This document shows, one piece after another, positions 22,510 through 31,844 of a DNA stretch of 41,355 nucleotides (within the stretch, counting starts at the first letter, position 1; every line of letters starts with the position of its first letter). The notes under the pieces are model-generated. The model did no database searches and was not told where the DNA came from. It was given only the letters and a program-made list of their open reading frames with translations. The translations under genes and the position numbers were made by a program. The stretch covers positions 1-41,355 of the IMG/VR virus record IMGVR_UViG_3300045988_021954. One strand, 5' to 3'. The DNA comes from a virus.

Positions 22510-23085
22510 ATGGCGAGAGCAGAAGACATTCTTACCGTCGCTAAAAAAGAGATCGGCACGGTGGAGCAGCCGGGCAACCGACAGAAGTACGGCAAAGCCT
22601 ACGGCATGGACGGCGTGTACTGGTGTATGCAGTTCGTGTGGTGGTGCTTCCAGCAGGTGGATAAGCGGCTCTTTTACGGCGGCGGGAAGACCGCAAGCTG
22701 CGGCGAGCTGATGAACTACGCCAAGGCTCACGGGCAGTGGGTCACGTCCGGTTATCAGCCGGGCGACGTGCTCATCTATGACTTCCCCAACACGAAGGTC
22801 AAGACCGACCATTGCGGCATCTGCGAGAGCGTGAGTGGGCAGTACGTGATCGCCATCGAGGGCAATACCTCCAACGGCAACACCGGCAGCCAGAGCAACG
22901 GCGACGGGGTGTATCGCCGCAAGCGCAAGCTGTCGCTCGTGCTGGGCGCATACCGCCCGAAGTATGAGGCGAGTTACCGCGAGGTGCTCAAAAAGCGCGC
23001 GGGGCTGGAAGACAAGACGATGGACTACCTCGCGGCGTACAAGTACGGTGATGACTTAATTCGCAAACTCGCAACGATGAAATAA
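22510..23085 (+). CDS. Endolysin, CHAP-domain peptidoglycan hydrolase
   Basis: Cys motif YWCMQFVWWCF and His motif DHCGICESV...IEGNTS, typical of CHAP / NlpC-type amidases. Confidence 0.8.
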   Translation: MARAEDILTVAKKEIGTVEQPGNRQKYGKAYGMDGVYWCMQFVWWCFQQVDKRLFYGGGKTASCGELMNYAKAHGQWVTSGYQPGDVLIYDFPNTKVKTDHCGICESVSGQYVIAIEGNTSNGNTGSQSNGDGVYRRKRKLSLVLGAYRPKYEASYREVLKKRAGLEDKTMDYLAAYKYGDDLIRKLATMK

Positions 23086-23176
23086 ATGTGCCCGAATCGG
23101 GCACGGAAAGGGAAACGGGCGGGAGACCTGCAACGTCTCCCCTCGCGTGAGCGCTCTGCAAGCCCCGGTGCACAGC

Positions 23177-23422
23177 ATGGACAAGCAGCACCGAGCGATC
23201 CGCGCGCAACTATCCTCTATGGCCCCGCGCAGGGCTATAGCATACATCCAAGCCTATGACCTGCCGCCCGATGAGATGGCATGCCTCATCGAGTGTGACG
23301 TGCGAGGGCATTCCCTCGTGCAGGTCGCCGCTCAGCTCCACATGAGCGTGGACGGCCTCGCCAAGCTGCGCCGCCGGGCTTACCGCAAGCTTGCCGACGG
23401 GCAGAAAGAGAGCACCGACTAA
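23177..23422 (+). CDS. Sigma-70 region-4-like HTH protein (81 aa)
   Basis: LPPDEMACLIECDVRGHSLVQVAAQLHMSVDGLAKLRRRAYRKLA fits the region 4.2 pattern. Start uncertain (GTG at 23147 is possible). Confidence 0.5.
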   Translation: MDKQHRAIRAQLSSMAPRRAIAYIQAYDLPPDEMACLIECDVRGHSLVQVAAQLHMSVDGLAKLRRRAYRKLADGQKESTD

Positions 23423-23440
23423 TCAGTCGGTGCTCTCTTT
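23405..23440. terminator. Bidirectional terminator shared by convergent genes
   Basis: Perfect 16-bp arms AAAGAGAGCACCGACT / AGTCGGTGCTCTCTTT with loop aatc, then TTTT on the + strand. Confidence 0.8.
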
Positions 23441-24013
23441 TTTGACTTCGCTTTGCTTTGATTCCGTCCCGCTCCGGCGCTTGGCGTCCGCGCGATGCTG
23501 GACCTCTTTTCGATGGGCTGCGGCGCACTCAGGGGAGCAGGTAACGGTGGGGGTGCCGGGGACTATCTCCCAGCCACAGACAACACAGACCTTTACGCCG
23601 CTGCGGGATTTTTCGCGGCGTTTTATGTAGTAATCGTGTTCGGCGTTCCAGCTTTTTGACTGCGCGCGGTCGATTTCGCGGACGGCATCCGGGGCGCATT
23701 TTGGACAATACTTTTGCAATCCGGATTGGATGACATACTCTCCACCGCAGATCACGCAGTTATCGATATCTCCCAGATGCCGGGAAAAACCGGTGGACCG
23801 GTACTTTTGCTTCCGGGCCTTCTGCCGCTCTGCCCGACAGGTTGGGCAGTAGCTGGCTCGGGGCCCTCCGATGAAGTTGGCCCCGCAGGTGTGGCAGGTT
23901 CGCGTGCGCAGGGTGGTCGACCGGGATGCGGCAAGGCAGTCATCGCACTTCGCCTGCTCTGCGCGATCGGTGGAAAAAATCTTGCCGCAGGTGATACATT
24001 TTTTAGTCCGCAT
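23423..24013 (-). CDS. Multi-zinc-ribbon protein (196 aa), function unknown
   Basis: ATG 7 nt after AAGGAGA. Four CxxC...CxxC pairs (CITCG..CDDC, CHTCG..CPTC, CVICG..CPKC, CVVCG..CSPEC). Confidence 0.7.
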   Translation of the reverse strand: MRTKKCITCGKIFSTDRAEQAKCDDCLAASRSTTLRTRTCHTCGANFIGGPRASYCPTCRAERQKARKQKYRSTGFSRHLGDIDNCVICGGEYVIQSGLQKYCPKCAPDAVREIDRAQSKSWNAEHDYYIKRREKSRSGVKVCVVCGWEIVPGTPTVTCSPECAAAHRKEVQHRADAKRRSGTESKQSEVKKESTD

Positions 24014-24033
24014 ACACAGTCTCCTTTGCCGCG

Positions 24034-24315
24034 TTATAACAAAAATTTTGCATCTACGCCCAGCGCGTCGGCGATGGCAAGCAGGTTTTTGGCGGTCAGA
24101 TTGCCCGCCTCCGCCTCCCCCAGCTCCACGCGCTGGATCTGGCGGATATTGACGCCGGACTTCTTGGCAAGCTCGGACTGAGTCATGTCTGCCATGCGGC
24201 GCGACCACTCCAGCTTGGTGATCGGGCGGTTATGGCAGTCTCGCCCGTAATTGACCAGCGAGCAGGCGGTGCAGTCCCCGTCTTCGCGCTGGCAGTCGTT
24301 GTATTTTCGTCTCAT
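24034..24315 (-). CDS. XRE-family HTH regulator (93 aa), Aca-like position
   Basis: MTQSELAKKSGVNIRQIQRVELGEAEAGNLTAKNLLAIADALGV is an HTH_3 pattern. Cys-rich N-terminus. RBS GAAGGTGA. Confidence 0.75.
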   Translation of the reverse strand: MRRKYNDCQREDGDCTACSLVNYGRDCHNRPITKLEWSRRMADMTQSELAKKSGVNIRQIQRVELGEAEAGNLTAKNLLAIADALGVDAKFLL

Positions 24316-24331
24316 ATCGTAGTCACCTTCT

Positions 24332-24550
24332 TTAGAGGAGATCGTAGCCCACGAGAGGGAAATTACCGTATTCATCCGGCTCCTGCCCATACACAGGACG
24401 GAGGCGGCGGCCCCCGTCGATGTCCCATTCCTCACCGTTCCAGTAGCGGTCGCCGTACTGCTGGAGCCATTCGCCGAGAGCGGCGAGATTTTCGTCGGTG
24501 GGGTTCTTTATGGCCGCCTCGCGGAGTTCTTCATATCTGTATTCGTTCAT
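24332..24550 (-). CDS. Small acidic protein (72 aa), unknown
   Basis: RBS AGGAGGAGGAA. 16 D/E against 7 K/R. Confidence 0.65.
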   Translation of the reverse strand: MNEYRYEELREAAIKNPTDENLAALGEWLQQYGDRYWNGEEWDIDGGRRLRPVYGQEPDEYGNFPLVGYDLL

Positions 24551-24572
24551 GATGTTCCTCCTCCTGTAAGTT

Positions 24573-24833
24573 TTATAGATCGAGCATAGTCGCGCCGCCG
24601 TTGCGGGCGTCGACAATGTTGTTAATTTCCTCGTAGCAGGTTACGGGGTCCGGCTCGCCGCCCTCCCAGCCGTCGGCGATGGGGTCGCCGCCGGCCTTGA
24701 GCGCGTCCAGCGTCTCAACGACCAGAGCACGGTCCGCGTCGCAGAGGTAGTAGATGCAGGAGCCGTTTTCGTCCATGACAGCGAGGTGCAAACGACCGGC
24801 GTTATCCTCGTAGATACTGTAAGTGTACTTCAT
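24573..24833 (-). CDS. Small acidic protein (86 aa), unknown
   Basis: RBS GGGAGGAAAC. 17 D/E against 5 K/R. First gene after the consensus promoter. Confidence 0.65.
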   Translation of the reverse strand: MKYTYSIYEDNAGRLHLAVMDENGSCIYYLCDADRALVVETLDALKAGGDPIADGWEGGEPDPVTCYEEINNIVDARNGGATMLDL

Positions 24834-24877
24834 TTTTGTTTCCTCCCGGGGTGTTCCCCTCTCTTGTTTACATGCTT

Positions 24878-24906
24878 ATTATACGCTAATATTAGCGTAT
24901 TGTCAA
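24878..24906 (-). promoter_or_regulatory. Consensus sigma-70 promoter with embedded 20-bp palindromic operator
   Basis: On the minus strand: TTGACA (24906-24901), 17-nt spacer, TATAAT (24883-24878). Perfect palindrome ATACGCTAATATTAGCGTAT at 24881-24900. Confidence 0.8.
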
Positions 24907-24940
24907 GAAAAAATCACAGAGTTTTGAAGAAATTTTTGAG

Positions 24941-24988
24941 GGCAAAACGCGGGCATTTTGCGGGCAATTTCCCGCGGCAAAATCGCGG
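24941..24988 (+). promoter_or_regulatory. GGCAA(A/T)..CGCGG repeat cluster upstream of the rightward cargo operon
   Basis: GGCAAAACGCGGG (24941-24953), GGGCAATTTCCCGCGG (24962-24977), GGCAAAATCGCGG (24976-24988), plus the inverted pair GCAAAA / TTTTGC. Confidence 0.4.
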
Positions 24989-25020: not shown

Positions 25021-25143
25021 ATGTACGACCGACTTTTAGCTTTGGGATTTACCGAGCAGATGGCGATGGACATTCTCGCGCTTTTTCCTGACCCTGACGA
25101 GCTGCGCACTTACGTCTATTTCGCGGAGCTTTTCCATGTATAG
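25021..25143 (+). CDS. Small hypothetical protein (40 aa)
   Basis: ATG after AAAAGGAGGTG. Product MYDRLLALGFTEQMAMDILALFPDPDELRTYVYFAELFHV. Overlaps the next start. Confidence 0.45.
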   Translation: MYDRLLALGFTEQMAMDILALFPDPDELRTYVYFAELFHV

Positions 25144-25519
25144 CTATTTCAACCCGAATCCAAACGGGCGCAACGTCAGCGACTGCACCGTGCGCGCGAT
25201 CTGCAAGGCGACGGGGAAGGACTGGGGCGAAGTTTATTTGTCTCTGTGCATACAGGGATACTTGGACGGCGACTTGCCCAATGCAAACGCCTGTTGGGGC
25301 GCATATCTGCGGTCGCTCGGCTATCGGCGCTATATCATGCCGGACACTTGCCCGGACTGCTACACGGTCGGCAGATTTGCTGATGAGCACCCGCGCGGGA
25401 CGTATATTCTCGCGCTTTCTGGTCATGTGGTCTGCGTGCAGGATGGTGTAATTTACGACAGCTGGAACAGCGAGAACGAAATCCCGCTTTATTATTGGGT
25501 CAAAGAAACGGAGGAATGA
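25136..25519 (+). CDS. Hypothetical protein with possible papain-like Cys-His-Asp arrangement
   Basis: SDCTVRAI ... LSGHVVCV ... YDSWNS are ordered as in cysteine-peptidase triads. The assignment is tentative. Confidence 0.35.
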   Translation: MYSYFNPNPNGRNVSDCTVRAICKATGKDWGEVYLSLCIQGYLDGDLPNANACWGAYLRSLGYRRYIMPDTCPDCYTVGRFADEHPRGTYILALSGHVVCVQDGVIYDSWNSENEIPLYYWVKETEE

Positions 25520-25521
25520 AC

Positions 25522-25959
25522 ATGGCATATCCCTATTTCAATCCCTATTATCCGCAGCCAATGCCAGACAACCTCATGCAGATGCGGCAGATGCAGCAGC
25601 CACAAATGCAGCCCATGCAGCAGCCTATGTCGCAGCCAGTGCAACAGAACCCCATCGCACAGGGCGGCGTGCAGTGGGTAAGCGGCGAGCAGGAGGCGAG
25701 AGGCTATCTCATCGCGCCCAACTCTGCTGTGGCGCTGTGGGATTCTACCGCGCCGACTGTGTATCTCAAGCAGGCGGATGCAAGCGGCAAGCCAACGCTC
25801 AAGATTTATGACCTCGTAGAACGCGCAGAAACGCCCCGCACAGCGCCGCAGGAAAAGGGCGTGGAATTTGTCACCCGCAAGGAGTTTGACGCACTGGCGG
25901 CTCTTGTGGGCGAAATAAAGGGCAAGAAGAAGCGCAAGGAGGACGATGACGATGACTAA
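25522..25959 (+). CDS. Q/P/M-rich low-complexity N-terminus protein (145 aa), unknown
   Basis: ATG after ACGGAGGAATGAAC. PYYPQPMPDNLMQMRQMQQPQMQPMQQPMSQPVQQ followed by a globular domain and a KKKRKEDDDDD tail. Confidence 0.6.
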   Translation: MAYPYFNPYYPQPMPDNLMQMRQMQQPQMQPMQQPMSQPVQQNPIAQGGVQWVSGEQEARGYLIAPNSAVALWDSTAPTVYLKQADASGKPTLKIYDLVERAETPRTAPQEKGVEFVTRKEFDALAALVGEIKGKKKRKEDDDDD

Positions 25960-26170
25960 TCCGTTTATGGCCGCGCTGGGCGGCGGGCAGATGCCGGGGC
26001 CGATAAGTGAGCTGATGCAGCTCAAGCAGAAATTCCAACAGTTCCAAAGCGGCTTTCAGGGAAACCCAAAAGAAGAAGTCAATAAGCTCCTGCAATCTGG
26101 TGCGATGAGCCAGCAGGAGTTAAACCAACTGCAATCTATGGCAAAACAGTTTGAGCATTTATTCCATTGA
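25952..26170 (+). CDS. Hypothetical Q-rich helical protein (72 aa)
   Basis: ATG 9 nt after AAGGAGG. Overlaps the previous stop. Confidence 0.5.
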   Translation: MTNPFMAALGGGQMPGPISELMQLKQKFQQFQSGFQGNPKEEVNKLLQSGAMSQQELNQLQSMAKQFEHLFH

Positions 26171-26221
26171 TCTTATCGTGGCCGCGATTTGATAAATAAA
26201 ATTTATGAAAGGAGAGATAAT

Positions 26222-26935
26222 ATGTCTCTTTCCGACGGTGCTCCCATGATGACTATGCCGGTCGCGCCCGCGAACAATTACGGCGGCGGTATGGGTATGT
26301 GGGGCGACAACTGGATCTGGATTATCGTTCTTTTCCTCTTCGGCTGGGGCCGCAACGGATTTGGCAACGGTAACGGCGGCGGTGTGATGGACGGCTACGT
26401 TCTGACCTCTGACTTTGCGAGCGTTGAGCGTAAGCTCGACAGCATTTCGAATGGCATTTGCGATTCCACCTTCGCGTTGAACAATGCCATTACTGGTGGC
26501 TTTGCTACGACCGCACAGGCCATCAACAGCGGCTTCGGCAATGCCGAGCTGTCCCGCGCAAACCAGCAGGCGGCTCTCATGCAGCAGCTCAACGCCATGC
26601 AGATGCAGGCTGCTAATTGCTGCTGCGAGAATCGCGCGGCTATCGCGCAGGTGCGCTATGACATGGCGACGCAGGCGTGCGACACGCGCAACACCGTGCA
26701 GAACGCCACGCGCGACATCATTGACGCGAACAACCAGAACAGCCGCGCGATCCTCGACTTCCTGACGCAGAGCAAGCTCTCTGACCTTCAGGCCGAGAAC
26801 CAAGGCTTGAAGCTGGCGGCAAGCCAGGCGGCGCAGAACAGCTATCTGGTCTCGCAGCTGCGGCCCTCCCCCATTCCGGCCTACACGGTGCAGAACCCCT
26901 ATTGCTGCAACCAGTTTGCCGGTTGCGGCTGCTGA
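26222..26935 (+). CDS. Membrane protein with Gly-rich segment, coiled coil and Cys-rich C-terminus (237 aa)
   Basis: ATG after GAAAGGAGAG. TM WIWIIVLFLFGW, GFGNGNGGG, internal CCC, C-terminal YCCNQFAGCGC. Confidence 0.65.
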   Translation: MSLSDGAPMMTMPVAPANNYGGGMGMWGDNWIWIIVLFLFGWGRNGFGNGNGGGVMDGYVLTSDFASVERKLDSISNGICDSTFALNNAITGGFATTAQAINSGFGNAELSRANQQAALMQQLNAMQMQAANCCCENRAAIAQVRYDMATQACDTRNTVQNATRDIIDANNQNSRAILDFLTQSKLSDLQAENQGLKLAASQAAQNSYLVSQLRPSPIPAYTVQNPYCCNQFAGCGC

Positions 26936-27089
26936 CAACTGCATAGCATAGCTTCTCGGGCACCATATCGGTGACGTTACCGAGATGGTCGGCCCCGTGC
27001 CGACACTGGAAACAACGCGGCGGGGCAATAGCCCTGCCGCTGTATTTTAACCGGGTCGAAATCGACCCCTTTAGAAAGGACTGATTATT

Positions 27090-27512
27090 TTGGCAGAGTA
27101 CACAAATGCAAATATTGTGAGCGTAGCCGCTGGGCAGAACGTTCCCTTGACCGAAACGGCGGTCAATAGCAAGCCCTGTATCTTGCATCGCCAGGGCGCA
27201 GGCATTGTCACGCTGCGCGGCCTCACCAATCAAAACCGCGCTCTGTTTCGGGTCTCCTATGGCGGCAACATCGCTATTCCTACCGGAGGCACGGTTGAGG
27301 CCATCACGGCGGCGCTTGCCATTAACGGAGAGCCGTTGACCAGCGCAACAGCTACCGTCACGCCTGCGGCGGTAGAAAATTACTTTAACATTTATGTTTC
27401 CGCACAGGTCTGCGTCCCGAAAGGCTGCTACCTGACGGTCGCAATGGAAAACACCAGCACTCAGGCCGTCAACTTCGCCAACTCGAATCTGACGGTTGAG
27501 AGAATCGCGTGA
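27090..27512 (+). CDS. Beta-rich protein, possibly C1q/BclA-C-terminal-like fold (140 aa)
   Basis: TTG start after AAAGGA. ...LAINGEPLTSATATVTPAA...VAMENTSTQAVNFANSNLTVERIA loosely resembles the layout of the BclA C-terminal domain. Confidence 0.45.
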   Translation: MAEYTNANIVSVAAGQNVPLTETAVNSKPCILHRQGAGIVTLRGLTNQNRALFRVSYGGNIAIPTGGTVEAITAALAINGEPLTSATATVTPAAVENYFNIYVSAQVCVPKGCYLTVAMENTSTQAVNFANSNLTVERIA

Positions 27513-27525
27513 AAGGAGAATGGAC

Positions 27526-27933
27526 ATGAGCAAGAAAGCAATGTATGATCTGCGCAATATGCTGTGCAACGAACTCGACGAGCTGGCACGTAAGGGCGAG
27601 CTTGGCGCGTGCGATCTCGAAATTGCGCACAAGCTGACGGACACCATCAAGAACATCGATAAGATTGAGATGTTGGAGGACGACGGCTATTCCCGCGATG
27701 AAGACTATTCTCGCCGCTATTCCCGCGACGGAGACTGGCAGTCTGGTATGCGCGGCGCTTATGACCGTGATATGTCCAATGCGAGACGCGGCACGCATTA
27801 TGTGCGCGGCCACTATTCCCGTGATGGTGGTATCGACAACATGAAACGCCAGTTGCAGGAAATGCTGGACAACTCCGACGACGAAAGCATCCGCAGAGCC
27901 ATCCAGCGCTGCATGGACACGATTGAGGGCTAA
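27526..27933 (+). CDS. Hypothetical protein with YSRD repeats (135 aa)
   Basis: ATG 7 nt after AAAGGAG. DDGYSRDEDYSRRYSRDGDW...GHYSRDGG. Confidence 0.6.
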   Translation: MSKKAMYDLRNMLCNELDELARKGELGACDLEIAHKLTDTIKNIDKIEMLEDDGYSRDEDYSRRYSRDGDWQSGMRGAYDRDMSNARRGTHYVRGHYSRDGGIDNMKRQLQEMLDNSDDESIRRAIQRCMDTIEG

Positions 27934-27948
27934 AGTGGGTGCGCCCCT

Positions 27949-28269
27949 ATGGTCGACGAGAATGAGGTCAATCGCTGGATAGCTCGCCTTGAAACAGAGG
28001 AATCGAGTTGGACAAACTATGAGCGCCTTGCCGTGCTGTATGCCATCCGTGACCAGCAAAGCAGCAGCAGGGAGAGGGCTTTGCCAATGGCATACTCCGC
28101 AGCACCCGCGCCGGTTAGCGTCGAAACATACGGCGACAGCGACTTCCTGCGCGCAGTGGCAGATATTCCGCCGGACAAGGCGTGGGAGATCATGGACGAG
28201 CTGATGGACAGTTTGAAAATTGTGAACGAGCGCGTCTATAATAGCGTCATGCGTAAGCTCGAAAAATGA
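27949..28269 (+). CDS. Hypothetical protein (106 aa)
   Basis: Last ORF of the rightward operon. Followed by a terminator. Confidence 0.55.
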   Translation: MVDENEVNRWIARLETEESSWTNYERLAVLYAIRDQQSSSRERALPMAYSAAPAPVSVETYGDSDFLRAVADIPPDKAWEIMDELMDSLKIVNERVYNSVMRKLEK

Positions 28270-28342: not shown

Positions 28343-29641
28343 CTAACGTGGCGTTACAAAAAACGCGCCGTCGTCATCTGCATCAATTCTCCGGATGAAG
28401 CGCGTCCAGAATTCCTTTTTTTCTTCTCGCAAGTATGTATCATATTCCGCCAGCCCATTTCGCAGCGCATCAAGGTTTGTCTTCGGCTTTTCCTCTACCG
28501 CTTCAAGGGATTTCTTTAATGTGGTGTACTCTTTCTTGTATTCGTCCAACTCAATCAAGTCGTTAAGATAAAGCGTTTTCAGCTTATCCATTTTCTTTCG
28601 TATCGCGTCCGCGCTTTGCGTGGGCTTTTTTTCTGCCTTTTTATAATAGCGATTGTTTCGCTCGGCAATTCCTTCAAGCTCATGCAATAAATAAGCTTCC
28701 AGCGCATCTTCGCGAATCCTCTTTTTGTGCTGGCACGCGGAGGTGTCAAGCATTCGCGTCCGGCATCGGTAGTAGGTATAGATCTGCTTTGCCGTTTCCG
28801 ACTGCATCGTTTTCCCACACTCTTTGCAATGCAACAAGCCGGAGAACAGATAAACGCGATCTGTCTCAATTCCTGCGCAGCGCTGCGACCGCTGGCGGAG
28901 AATATCATTTACAATGTCAAAATCCTGCTTGCTCACCAGAGCGGGACAGGCATTCTCGATGCCGTACACCTCGCCGATATAAAGCCGGTTCCGGAAATAG
29001 TTTACATATTTGGTATACGCCCTGTCAATGCCCCACGTCTCAAGCATATAGCGCTTTACGCCAAGCACGCTTTGCAGCCTGATATACGCCGCAAACATAT
29101 CTCGCGCGGCATCTGCCGTGCCGTTATCGATCTGGTATTGCCTGCCCTTGATGATATACCCTAAAGGGGCTTTTGACCCTGCCGGTTGGCCTTTTGCGCG
29201 TTTGCCGTCGTTGATAAATTTGATTCGCTCGCTTGTGCGGTCGGCTTCGTCCTGCGCGACGGAAAGCATGATGTTGACCTTTAATCGCCCGGACGCAGTG
29301 CGCGTTTCGTAGTCCTCTTCCGTCGCTTGCCATGTCACGCCGTACTGGTCAAGCCGCGTCTGCACATCGTAGTACCCGGCGACATTGCGAAACCAGCGAT
29401 CGAGTTTAATAAACAAGATCGTGTCTACCTTCCCTGCTTTGCAATCATCCAGCAGCCGCAGGAGCGCGGGGCGCTTTTTGTACGGTTTTCTCGCGGAAAT
29501 TCCCGCGTCCTCGTATATGCCTGCCACGGTCATTTTATTCGCTTTTGCATATCTTATCAGCGCGTCTCTCTGTTCTTGCAGGGACAGGCCATGCCGTGCC
29601 TGTTCCTCGCTCGAGACGCGGATATACAATGCCACTCGCAT
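28343..29641 (-). CDS. int: Large serine recombinase (integrase)
   Basis: N-terminal resolvase catalytic domain VALYIRVSSEEQ..., recombinase domain, and zinc-ribbon CKECGK...YYRC. ATG after GGAGGGGG. Confidence 0.9.
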   Translation of the reverse strand: MRVALYIRVSSEEQARHGLSLQEQRDALIRYAKANKMTVAGIYEDAGISARKPYKKRPALLRLLDDCKAGKVDTILFIKLDRWFRNVAGYYDVQTRLDQYGVTWQATEEDYETRTASGRLKVNIMLSVAQDEADRTSERIKFINDGKRAKGQPAGSKAPLGYIIKGRQYQIDNGTADAARDMFAAYIRLQSVLGVKRYMLETWGIDRAYTKYVNYFRNRLYIGEVYGIENACPALVSKQDFDIVNDILRQRSQRCAGIETDRVYLFSGLLHCKECGKTMQSETAKQIYTYYRCRTRMLDTSACQHKKRIREDALEAYLLHELEGIAERNNRYYKKAEKKPTQSADAIRKKMDKLKTLYLNDLIELDEYKKEYTTLKKSLEAVEEKPKTNLDALRNGLAEYDTYLREEKKEFWTRFIRRIDADDDGAFFVTPR

Positions 29642-30033
29642 CAAATCCCCCTCCAATCAATGTACAAGCACCATGCGGCCAGCAAAACGATAATGACAAA
29701 CATTATAGCAATTACGCCGTTGCGGATACGGACACCGCGCCGCATGATCTCAATGGTATCTGCCTTTGCGTCCACGTGACGTTCCAGCTCATCATTCCGC
29801 GCTTGCAAAGTTTCCTCGGTCGGCGTCAAGTGTTCGGAAATTCCGAACGATTCATCAAGCGATATTCCAATCGCTTTGCAGATCGGCGCAACGGTGTAGA
29901 TGGACGGAGCTTTAGAAAACTTGGAAAAGAAATTCTGCACGGTGGACAGCGGAACGCCGGAAACGTCGGAAATTTCCTGATAGGTCAGTTTCAAATCTTC
30001 TTTACGGATTCTGCACACTTCTTGAATGTTCAT
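29641..30033 (-). CDS. Membrane-anchored XRE-family HTH protein, translationally coupled to the integrase
   Basis: N-terminal HTH LTYQEISDVSGVPLSTVQNF. C-terminal TM VIAIMFVIIVLLAAWCLYI. Its stop overlaps the int ATG. Confidence 0.7.
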   Translation of the reverse strand: MNIQEVCRIRKEDLKLTYQEISDVSGVPLSTVQNFFSKFSKAPSIYTVAPICKAIGISLDESFGISEHLTPTEETLQARNDELERHVDAKADTIEIMRRGVRIRNGVIAIMFVIIVLLAAWCLYIDWRGI

Positions 30034-31228: not shown

Positions 31229-31609
31229 TCATCGCAACTCTTGCAATTTTTTGTTGACCTCGTCAAGCACCATTAACAACACATCACGGTCGTTCGTTTT
31301 TTGGACAAGGTTGCGTAATTCATCGGCGCTCAAGCCCTCGATCTTCGGATCGGGGGCTTTTTTTATACCCTCGGCCTCGACCGTCGGGTCGTCAGTCTCG
31401 CCTTTGAGCCATGCGACGGAAACGTGATATTCATCGGCGATCTGATGGAGCTTTTTCTTGTAGGATTGGCTCGTCCCATTTATCCACATAGAGACAATGT
31501 CGCCACTGCCATATCCGATGCTTTGGGCAAAGGTTTTTTGGGACCCTCTTTTTATTTTCCCGTTTTCATGGGGCAGAAGCGACAAAATGCGGGTAAGTGT
31601 AACATCCAT
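31229..31609 (-). CDS. CI-like phage repressor (HTH only, no peptidase domain)
   Basis: SQKTFAQSIGYGSGDIVSMWINGTSQSYKKKLHQIADEYHVSVAWLKG fits the CI-repressor HTH pattern. Divergent from the cro-like gene. Confidence 0.7.
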   Translation of the reverse strand: MDVTLTRILSLLPHENGKIKRGSQKTFAQSIGYGSGDIVSMWINGTSQSYKKKLHQIADEYHVSVAWLKGETDDPTVEAEGIKKAPDPKIEGLSADELRNLVQKTNDRDVLLMVLDEVNKKLQELR

Positions 31610-31648
31610 AACAATCGCCTCAAAAATTTATGCAGTATAACAAAACTT

Positions 31649-31697
31649 ATAAAATTCGGTTAAGCTGATTGACAAACCGAATTTTATGAGTTATCAT
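31649..31697 (+). promoter_or_regulatory. Genetic switch: 13-bp inverted-repeat operator overlapping the rightward early promoter
   Basis: ATAAAATTCGGTT (31649-31661) / AACCGAATTTTAT (31675-31687). TTGACA (31669-31674), 17-nt spacer, TATCAT (31692-31697). Confidence 0.65.
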
Positions 31698-31844
31698 TGT
31701 ATCAAACCAAGCGGAAAAGGGTGCAAAAAACTCAGCCCCCTCAAAAAGCGGCTTTCTACAATTTCTTTTGGCGAAGCTATTGTATCCCCGTTTTTAGAGG
31801 TTGTCAAGCATGAAACCTCATGTTTATGAGTTTTCCGATTGGTG

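Follow-up and report, generated by a model that had tools for sequence, protein, structure and literature searches.

A probable autoregulated cassette with exchangeable cargo genes in a temperate gut phage and its resemblance to acr-aca loci

Introduction

In Listeria phage A118, the anti-CRISPR genes acrIIA3, acrIIA2 and acrIIA1 lie between ply and int and are transcribed towards ply, with AcrIIA1, which bears a helix-turn-helix (HTH), encoded last. The N-terminal domain of AcrIIA1 (AcrIIA1-NTD) was found experimentally in phage A006 to bind a conserved promoter palindrome and to repress through it, and A118 is included in the promoter alignment of the same study (bioRxiv 10.1101/787200). In proteobacterial acr-aca operons (Aca1, Aca2 and related), a strong promoter with inverted repeats drives small, diverse inhibitors and a downstream HTH autorepressor. 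Neighbouring anti-defence operons, along with numerous uncharacterised genes, are reportedly under Aca control as well (PMC13551039). Here, we describe an operon of similar design in a viral genome, IMG/VR record IMGVR_UViG_3300045988_021954, the full 41,355 nt of which are called the window. The operon occupies positions 23423-24906 and encodes two small acidic proteins (g1 and g2), an XRE-type HTH protein and a zinc-ribbon (Zn-ribbon) protein. An earlier note, made from the sequence alone, had read this operon as acr-aca-like. Literature searches found no paper describing the locus.

Comparison with homologous loci leaves little doubt that the locus is an autoregulated plug-in cassette, in which promoter, operator, leader and repressor are fixed and the cargo is exchangeable. 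On balance, we favour the view that this cassette of a temperate Oscillospiraceae phage works like an acr-aca anti-defence locus. The acr-aca-like design is known; what appears to be new is an apparently unnamed type of regulator, together with a set of candidate inhibitor families, in a group of phages that has been little explored.

Results

A perfect palindrome lies within the consensus promoter of a leftward operon

The window is a complete temperate tailed-phage genome, as judged from its gene content in domain and family searches of the encoded proteins. The operon has the following features.

24878-24906, minus strand: sigma-A consensus promoter, with the -35 element TTGACA at 24901-24906, a 17-nt spacer and the -10 element TATAAT at 24878-24883.
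24881-24900: operator palindrome ATACGCTAATATTAGCGTAT, 20 bp and perfect, spanning the spacer and running 3 nt into the -10 element.
24834-24871, minus strand: conserved leader of ~40 nt, with the presumed transcription start at ~24871.
24848-24859, minus strand: leader hairpin GGGG-AACA-CCCC, 1-2 nt before the Shine-Dalgarno sequence.
24842-24847, minus strand: Shine-Dalgarno sequence GGGAGG of the leader.
24573-24833, minus strand: g1, acidic cargo protein of 86 aa (17 D/E against 5 K/R), candidate inhibitor.
24332-24550, minus strand: g2, acidic cargo protein of 72 aa (16 D/E against 7 K/R), optional partner of g1.
24034-24315, minus strand: XRE/Cro-type HTH protein of 93 aa (Pfam HTH_3, E 1.7e-9), putative autorepressor.
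23423-24013, minus strand: Zn-ribbon protein of 196 aa, with four CxxC...CxxC pairs and basic helices between the ribbons.
23405-23440: bidirectional intrinsic terminator hairpin, with a 16-bp stem (-32.7 kcal/mol, z -6.1) and a T-run after the stem on both strands.

The four genes are separated by gaps of 16-22 nt and each is preceded by a Shine-Dalgarno sequence. The terminator closes the operon and is common to a convergent sigma-70 region-4-like gene. The promoter agrees with the consensus at 12 of 12 positions, and the palindrome across its spacer and -10 element, the lengths and charged-residue counts of the four leftward genes, the XRE HTH and the four zinc ribbons are all as the earlier note had described them. 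No other 12/12 consensus match occurs within 22-32 kb. ATACGCTAATATTAGCGTAT is single-copy in the window even when three mismatches are allowed, with 0 matches in 100 shuffles, and no second operator was found when the rest of the window was scanned for the palindrome or its half-site. The accessory position between the lysis genes and the integrase, also pointed out previously, was borne out as well; the same interval additionally holds the sigma-70 region-4-like gene and seven rightward genes.

The locus parallels described acr loci in layout

We compared the operon with the Listeria acr loci of A118, A006 and J0161 (acrIIA3 or acrIIA4, acrIIA2, acrIIA1). The A118 promoter has the form TTGACT-ACTACGATTATTCGTAG-TATAGT, and its palindrome fills the 17-nt spacer and enters the -10 element. 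The Listeria loci and the window operon share the position between endolysin and integrase, the orientation relative to the lysis genes, a near-consensus promoter (12/12 here) whose spacer palindrome reaches the -10 element, and an HTH regulator 3' of small, variable inhibitor genes. One of the cargo families found in sister loci, C10, also has an AcrIIA3-like N-terminal region. In contrast to the Listeria loci, the HTH protein is non-homologous to AcrIIA1 (it could not be aligned with A118 AcrIIA1) and carries a four-cysteine (4-Cys) N-terminus where AcrIIA1 has a C-terminal Cas9-binding domain. The HTH gene is followed by an additional Zn-ribbon gene, neither g1 nor g2 resembles AcrIIA1-4, and the locus, which comes from a phage of Oscillospiraceae, is known from sequence alone. 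The A118 parallel is one of analogy, not homology: position, orientation and promoter-operator design are the same and the regulators are unrelated.

As in the proteobacterial acr-aca operons, the HTH gene lies downstream in the same operon, the operator overlaps the operon's own promoter, and a conserved regulator stands beside variable cargo. Unlike those operons, which have paired repeats, this one has a single operator site within the spacer. Nor did the HTH match a named regulator family (Aca1-14 or AcrIIA1-NTD): in a profile search it matched no PDB chain named Aca, a comparison that covers Aca families with a solved structure, and gave a weak match to AcrIIA15 (E 0.21). Validated anti-CRISPRs or their homologues were not found among g1 and g2 in Pfam, PHROGs, NCBIfam, PADLOC, PDB sequences or PDB folds.

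The backbone is conserved and the cargo is exchanged

An IMG/VR scan with the HTH gave a comparison set of 80 loci with 72-100% identity. The promoter and palindrome are present upstream of the HTH gene in 78 of them. In the remaining two, the sequence ends 186 and 210 nt upstream of the HTH gene, which is too close to show the promoter. Two GenBank phages likewise retain the promoter, the palindrome and the ~40-nt leader at this place. Across the loci, the 14-bp operator core CGCTAATATTAGCG is near-invariant, CCAATATTGG represents a variant of the operator palindrome, and the leader is conserved over the ~40 nt from the -10 element to the start codon. Searching for the operator pattern as plain DNA picked up at least 120 stretches of phage sequence.

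In the interval from leader to HTH gene, we found at least 15 unrelated cargo families in ~12 arrangements. The arrangements consist of one gene for a protein of 108 aa (28 loci), 128, 65, 133, 115, 106 or 119 aa, of g1 with or without g2, or of gene pairs encoding 70-aa and 185-aa, 89-aa and 64-aa, or 62-aa and 124-aa proteins. Seven cargo families are strongly acidic: their net charge per residue lies between -0.10 and -0.20, and the window proteins average +0.015. g2 never occurs without g1 among the loci, and 10 loci with g1 lack g2. The four-gene operon of the earlier note is present in the window but is one arrangement among these rather than the general form, the 72-aa gene being optional. 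The Zn-ribbon gene, encoding 136-347 aa, lies 3' of the HTH gene in ~47 of 81 loci and is replaced or absent in the others (~40%).

Pairwise comparison of the window with locus L009 gave 98.6% identity over the promoter and leader, 94.7% DNA and 100% protein identity over the HTH, and 97.1% identity over the downstream 620 nt, with random-level similarity over the cargo. The conserved unit is the promoter, operator, leader and HTH gene, often together with the Zn-ribbon gene. The architectural part of the earlier reading is thus upheld by the 78 of 80 loci, the cargo exchange, the co-variation described below and the A118 parallel, while the anti-CRISPR or anti-defence function is one that we infer.

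In L089/L090 (5609-7015), a g1-HTH-Zn-ribbon cassette adjoins host histidine-biosynthesis genes, and this position is either the extreme edge of an element or a remnant. The third gene of this cassette encodes one zinc ribbon and a different C-terminal domain, which is common to a 475-aa Cys-rich protein in L085.

Operator and HTH vary together

The symmetric operator ACGCCAATATTGGCGT occurs in seven loci, and in all seven the HTH has IQKVESGEIETGNMAAKTLF replacing IQRVELGEAEAGNLTAKNLL; ACGCCAATATTGGCGT is absent from the loci with the standard HTH. L076 has the operator ACGTCAATATCGGCGT and an HTH recognition region of the form IQK...NMTAK. In L089, sites of the ACGGTAAT type lie in the spacer and also ahead of the -35 element, and the HTH has a strongly diverged recognition region with the N-terminal Cys motif kept. 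This co-variation, which amounts to about three independent events, is good but not decisive support for use of the palindrome by the HTH.

Some loci carry a second operator just upstream of the -35 element. In L052 (5345-5735, on a contig shared with L154), a second copy of the promoter-operator lies 3' of the Zn-ribbon gene. The gene that it drives encodes a 106-aa acidic protein of the C11 family and lacks a companion HTH gene. This arrangement suggests that the second operon is under trans control by the single HTH, a parallel to the control of neighbouring operons by Aca proteins. The loci L105, L112, L137, L192, L195, L198 and L211 have AT-rich leaders and carry TTGACAATACGCCAATATTGGCGTATAAT. 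In L195, an acidic 130-aa gene follows TTGACAATACGCCAATATTGGCGTATAAT, a homologous HTH was not found within 3.2 kb, and an apparent second operator copy lies upstream, as judged from translations of the open reading frames.

The HTH protein carries a four-cysteine N-terminus

The nearest solved relatives of the HTH in profile searches were 434 Cro, C.AhdI (E 1.2e-3), HipB and C.BclI. In PADLOC, it matched Control_protein (E 1e-3), and matches to HipB and HigA were weak. Searches against PDB sequences gave no match at E <= 0.01. Ahead of the HTH domain, residues 8-28 form a C-x6-C-x2-C-x8-C(H) motif (C8, C15, C18 and C27) that is invariant in relatives, including the diverged L089 copy. None of the Pfam families covers this motif, and in the HTH of phage Cormatin an unrelated N-terminal domain of ~80 aa replaces it. 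The four cysteines may bind a metal, act as a redox site or help the protein to dimerise.

These relatives include controller proteins of restriction-modification (R-M) systems. C.AhdI, C.BclI and C.Esp1396I are small XRE HTH dimers whose binding to palindromes across their own promoter times expression of the downstream gene, a mode of action that the window protein would share. In R-M systems, however, the controller is encoded first rather than third, and cargo turnover of the kind seen here is foreign to them. We considered and rejected an R-M controller unit: the four genes encode no nuclease or methyltransferase domain, and the sole methyltransferase is 23 kb away.

g1 is strongly acidic and has a counterpart domain in a polyvalent protein

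g1 is the most acidic of the ~51 window proteins, with a net charge of -0.14 per residue against a mean of +0.015 (sd 0.064). Its AlphaFold2 (AF2) model has a mean predicted local distance difference test score (pLDDT) of 93.7 and the element order beta3-alpha2-beta. Among viral models (BFVD, searched with Foldseek), the best hit was a weak match to an uncharacterised 79-aa Citrobacter phage protein (E 2.8e-3). None of the 64 homologue clusters of g1 carries a functional name, and a profile search of 1.84 billion representative proteins returned 132 relatives. For g2, 22 homologue clusters were found, and its AF2 model is fair (pLDDT 83.4). Family searches of g1 and g2 against Pfam, PHROGs, NCBIfam and PADLOC gave no functional match, and PDB sequence searches with g1, g2, C0, C14 and C10 gave chance-level matches only.

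We found a g1-like domain within larger proteins, namely P0155 (550 aa), P0157 (467 aa), P0195 (375 aa) and P0266 (778 aa). P0155 and P0157, which span 467-550 aa and contain DUF3849-like regions, match g1 at E 1e-27. In P0266, ArdC-N (Pfam, E 5.3e-9) and a HELGH motif are combined with the g1-like domain (hhalign probability 95.2%, E 2.6e-8) and DUF3991. Multi-stretch matches of the g1 profile in proteins of ~800-3200 aa were set aside; they are partial, lie within profile positions 19-84, and are probably due to a helical-repeat-like stretch. In conjugative elements and phages, polyvalent proteins have been proposed to act early in invasion, largely against host defence; a ParB-type domain is a hub of such proteins, and their domains also occur solo (PMC5512222). 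The presence of a g1 domain beside ArdC-N and DUF3991 in P0266 is in line with a solo polyvalent-protein domain. In the window, g1 stands alone as an 86-aa protein behind its own, presumably repressible promoter, and it matches no Pfam family.

Searches with 17 cargo and downstream proteins of sister loci against the same four family databases gave functional matches for C10 and C12 only. C10, which is encoded by the first gene of the Cormatin operon and also occurs in an Oscillibacter metagenome-assembled genome (MAG), matched the NCBIfam AcrIIA3 model over its N-terminal ~45 residues (E 4.2e-5, 23.6 bits, below the cut-off of 70). It is 30% identical to Listeria A118 gp30 (AcrIIA3) across 67 aa. 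C12 is ParB-N-like. The g1 domain in an ArdC-type polyvalent protein, the likeness of C10 to AcrIIA3 and that of C12 to ParB provide three indirect links by which the cargo may be connected to counter-defence.

Leader, flanking repeats and Zn-ribbon protein

All 50 distinct leader variants were predicted to fold a G/C stem of 3-5 bp at the same place (mean z -3.6), although the stem sequences vary (GGGG/CCCC, GAGG/CCTC, GGGC/GCCC and GGGA/TCCC). This hairpin comes from per-sequence folding alone, and RNAalifold predicted no consensus structure for 34 leaders. A function in messenger RNA stabilisation or translational control is speculative, and in comparison with Aca systems a role for this Shine-Dalgarno-adjacent hairpin as a protein-binding RNA motif is only hypothetical.

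The stretch separating the operon from the divergent rightward genes contains, just upstream of the -35 element, four copies of (A/T)TGCC(C)GC at 11-13 nt spacing (24938-24980). Three copies of TTTGGTCA take their place in other loci. The (A/T)TGCC(C)GC repeats may be sites for another binding factor, or phased A-tract bends.

The Cys pairs of the Zn-ribbon protein are C6/9 with C23/26, C40/43 with C56/59, C86/89 with C103/106 and C143/146 with C159/163. Distant members among its 62 homologue clusters carry Pfam DZR_2, DZR and AP2 domains, one is fused to HTH_3, and some sit in surroundings like those of integrative conjugative elements. From these sequence features the protein probably binds nucleic acid and is a frequent companion of the HTH.

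Neighbouring genes and hosts

Other features of the window are as follows.

293-1906, plus strand: orphan DNA methyltransferase of 537 aa (phrog_116, E 2.7e-67).
22510-23085: CHAP endolysin (domain and family match).
23147-23422, plus strand: sigma-70 region-4-like gene, 91 aa (Sigma70_r4_2, E 9.7e-6).
25021-25143, plus strand: conserved gene of 40 aa (MYDRLLALGFTEQMAMDILALFPDPDELRTYVYFAELFHV).
25136-28269, rightward: seven genes of PHROG families, function unassigned.
28343-29656: large serine integrase.
31229-31609: CI-like gene.

The structural genes identified include terminase, portal, major head protein and tape measure, and further genes encode CI-like and Cro-like proteins and a DnaC-like loader. 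The sigma-70 region-4-like gene lies directly 3' of the endolysin gene and converges on the operon, with which it shares the terminator. Elsewhere, homologues of g1 and of the Zn-ribbon protein also have small sigma-like genes of this kind nearby. The 40-aa gene heads the rightward PHROG cluster and is also present in L052. Adjoining the CI-like gene, region 31634-31807 resembles a lysis-lysogeny switch, with an 18-nt inverted repeat (31644-31661 and 31675-31692, 94% complementary) between divergent near-consensus promoters; its operator sequence is unrelated to the 20-bp palindrome of the cassette. A partner nuclease for the 537-aa methyltransferase was not found nearby, and this orphan enzyme gives the phage a further anti-restriction measure, of the classical kind and separate from the cassette.

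The relatives of the window are Flavonifractor phage Cormatin, human-gut contigs named 'Bacteriophage sp.', and Clostridiales and Oscillibacter MAGs, and we therefore place the hosts in Oscillospiraceae (Flavonifractor/Oscillibacter group). This assignment is coarse because a scan of genome contigs yielded only three relevant loci, in a Clostridiales MAG, an Oscillibacter MAG and a likely mis-binned Collinsella MAG.

Discussion

The cassette described here keeps its promoter, operator, leader and repressor across phages while the genes between leader and repressor change. Anti-defence is the best-supported function for these genes because cargo turnover resembles that of an arms race, many cargo families are acidic, the A118 locus offers a parallel, and three indirect links point to counter-defence. 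We propose that, on phage entry, the unrepressed consensus promoter would produce a burst of cargo transcription. The small and very acidic g1 and g2 would most likely bind and block a host defence protein. As the dimeric XRE-type HTH encoded by the third gene builds up, it would bind the spacer/-10 palindrome and shut the promoter to a low maintenance level, which would also be kept in the lysogen. The cargo slot, from the leader to the HTH start codon, would be exchanged among phages through recombination. The Zn-ribbon protein could act as a second nucleic-acid-binding regulator.

Several observations weigh against an anti-defence role. Searches of Pfam, PHROGs, NCBIfam and PADLOC linked no window protein to a validated family of Acr, anti-restriction or other anti-defence proteins. 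An Acr or DNA-mimic fold, which the earlier note had suggested looking for, was not recovered by structure prediction and fold search of the acidic proteins: Foldseek comparison with the PDB, including Acr and DNA-mimic structures, found no fold match for the g1 model (best E 0.49) or for the g2 model. By sequence composition, the acidity of g1 would suit the DNA-mimic class (Ocr, ArdA, AcrIIA2/4 type), and mimicry does not require a shared fold. The polyvalent-protein link implies early action after entry, not a specific anti-defence activity. The AcrIIA3 likeness of C10 is sub-threshold, covers ~45 N-terminal residues, and belongs to a sister locus rather than the window. A g1 homologue in L091 lies in a plain accessory cluster without this HTH, the count of co-variation events is limited, and the role of the Zn-ribbon gene is unexplained by the cassette model.

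Some of these points would fit a generic moron or host-takeover cassette, in which g1 and g2 modulate host housekeeping (transcription, replication or division) or bring about lysogenic conversion rather than act on immunity. The prophage-end site between the lysis genes and the integrase is a classic moron location, and small acidic phage proteins can inhibit non-defence targets, T7 Gp2 being an example. The failure of family and PDB fold searches to find homology to a validated anti-defence protein, and the HTH-less cluster of L091, favour this explanation too. However, extreme turnover of unrelated cargo behind an unchanged regulator is better suited to an arms race with diverse, strain-specific targets. 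The co-occurrence of the g1 domain with ArdC-N in a polyvalent protein, the AcrIIA3-like sister cargo and the design shared with the validated A118 acr locus also speak for immunity as the target, and we consider a housekeeping or conversion role unlikely, if still worth weighing.

Alternatively, the operon could be a developmental control module in which g1 and g2 are antirepressors or lysis-lysogeny regulators, and the HTH and Zn-ribbon proteins act as transcription factors on phage genes, for example together with the sigma-70 region-4-like protein. The presence of two putative nucleic-acid-binding proteins in the operon, the convergent sigma-like gene and the similar genes near homologues elsewhere are compatible with such a module, as is the fact that antirepressors are small and often encoded away from the immunity region. 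Against it, the palindrome is single-copy in the 41-kb genome with three mismatches allowed, which leaves the HTH no other evident target, and the phage appears to have a CI/Cro-type switch of its own that uses another operator. An antirepressor must also fit its repressor, which is hard to square with free exchange of cargo. We regard developmental control as improbable.

A type II toxin-antitoxin or abortive-infection module of higBA-like order, with the XRE HTH as antitoxin and autorepressor and a neighbouring gene as toxin, is excluded in practice, and we give it only a very slight chance, because an antitoxin must fit its toxin, yet an HTH with 100% identical protein sequence follows unrelated cargo sets in the window and L009; although XRE HTHs that autoregulate through promoter palindromes are typical antitoxins, the HTH weakly matches HipB and HigA, and toxin-first order exists in known systems, 15 unrelated families occupy the slot, the cargo is strongly acidic with no toxin-family matches in family searches, and the Zn-ribbon gene is missing from ~40% of loci.

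The acr-aca-like reading also allows a broader proposal, which we advance tentatively and rate as possible rather than probable. The 4-Cys XRE protein may represent a previously unnamed family of Aca-type repressors, and near-invariant CGCTAATATTAGCG within a consensus promoter may flag a recombination hotspot in gut Oscillospiraceae phages that holds at least 15 uncharacterised immune-inhibitor families, including g1 as both a new fold and an ArdC-type polyvalent module. On this reading, the Zn-ribbon protein and the hairpin beside the Shine-Dalgarno sequence may provide a further, post-transcriptional tier of control.

Hardly any anti-defence genes are known from phages of strictly anaerobic gut Firmicutes, as their products are small, evolve fast and lack recognisable domains. 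A conserved regulator, together with a 14-bp operator core for which plain DNA can be scanned, offers a cheap and specific handle on such genes, and Flavonifractor phage Cormatin on F. plautii provides a cultivable relative. Were the cargo to prove unrelated to defence, the locus would still stand as a clear natural case of plug-in expression, in which promoter, leader and repressor are fixed. If even a few of the cargo proteins inhibit CRISPR-Cas, restriction or other systems, these would represent new inhibitor folds, would help to explain phage host range in the gut, and would supply tools for editing and phage work in Oscillospiraceae.

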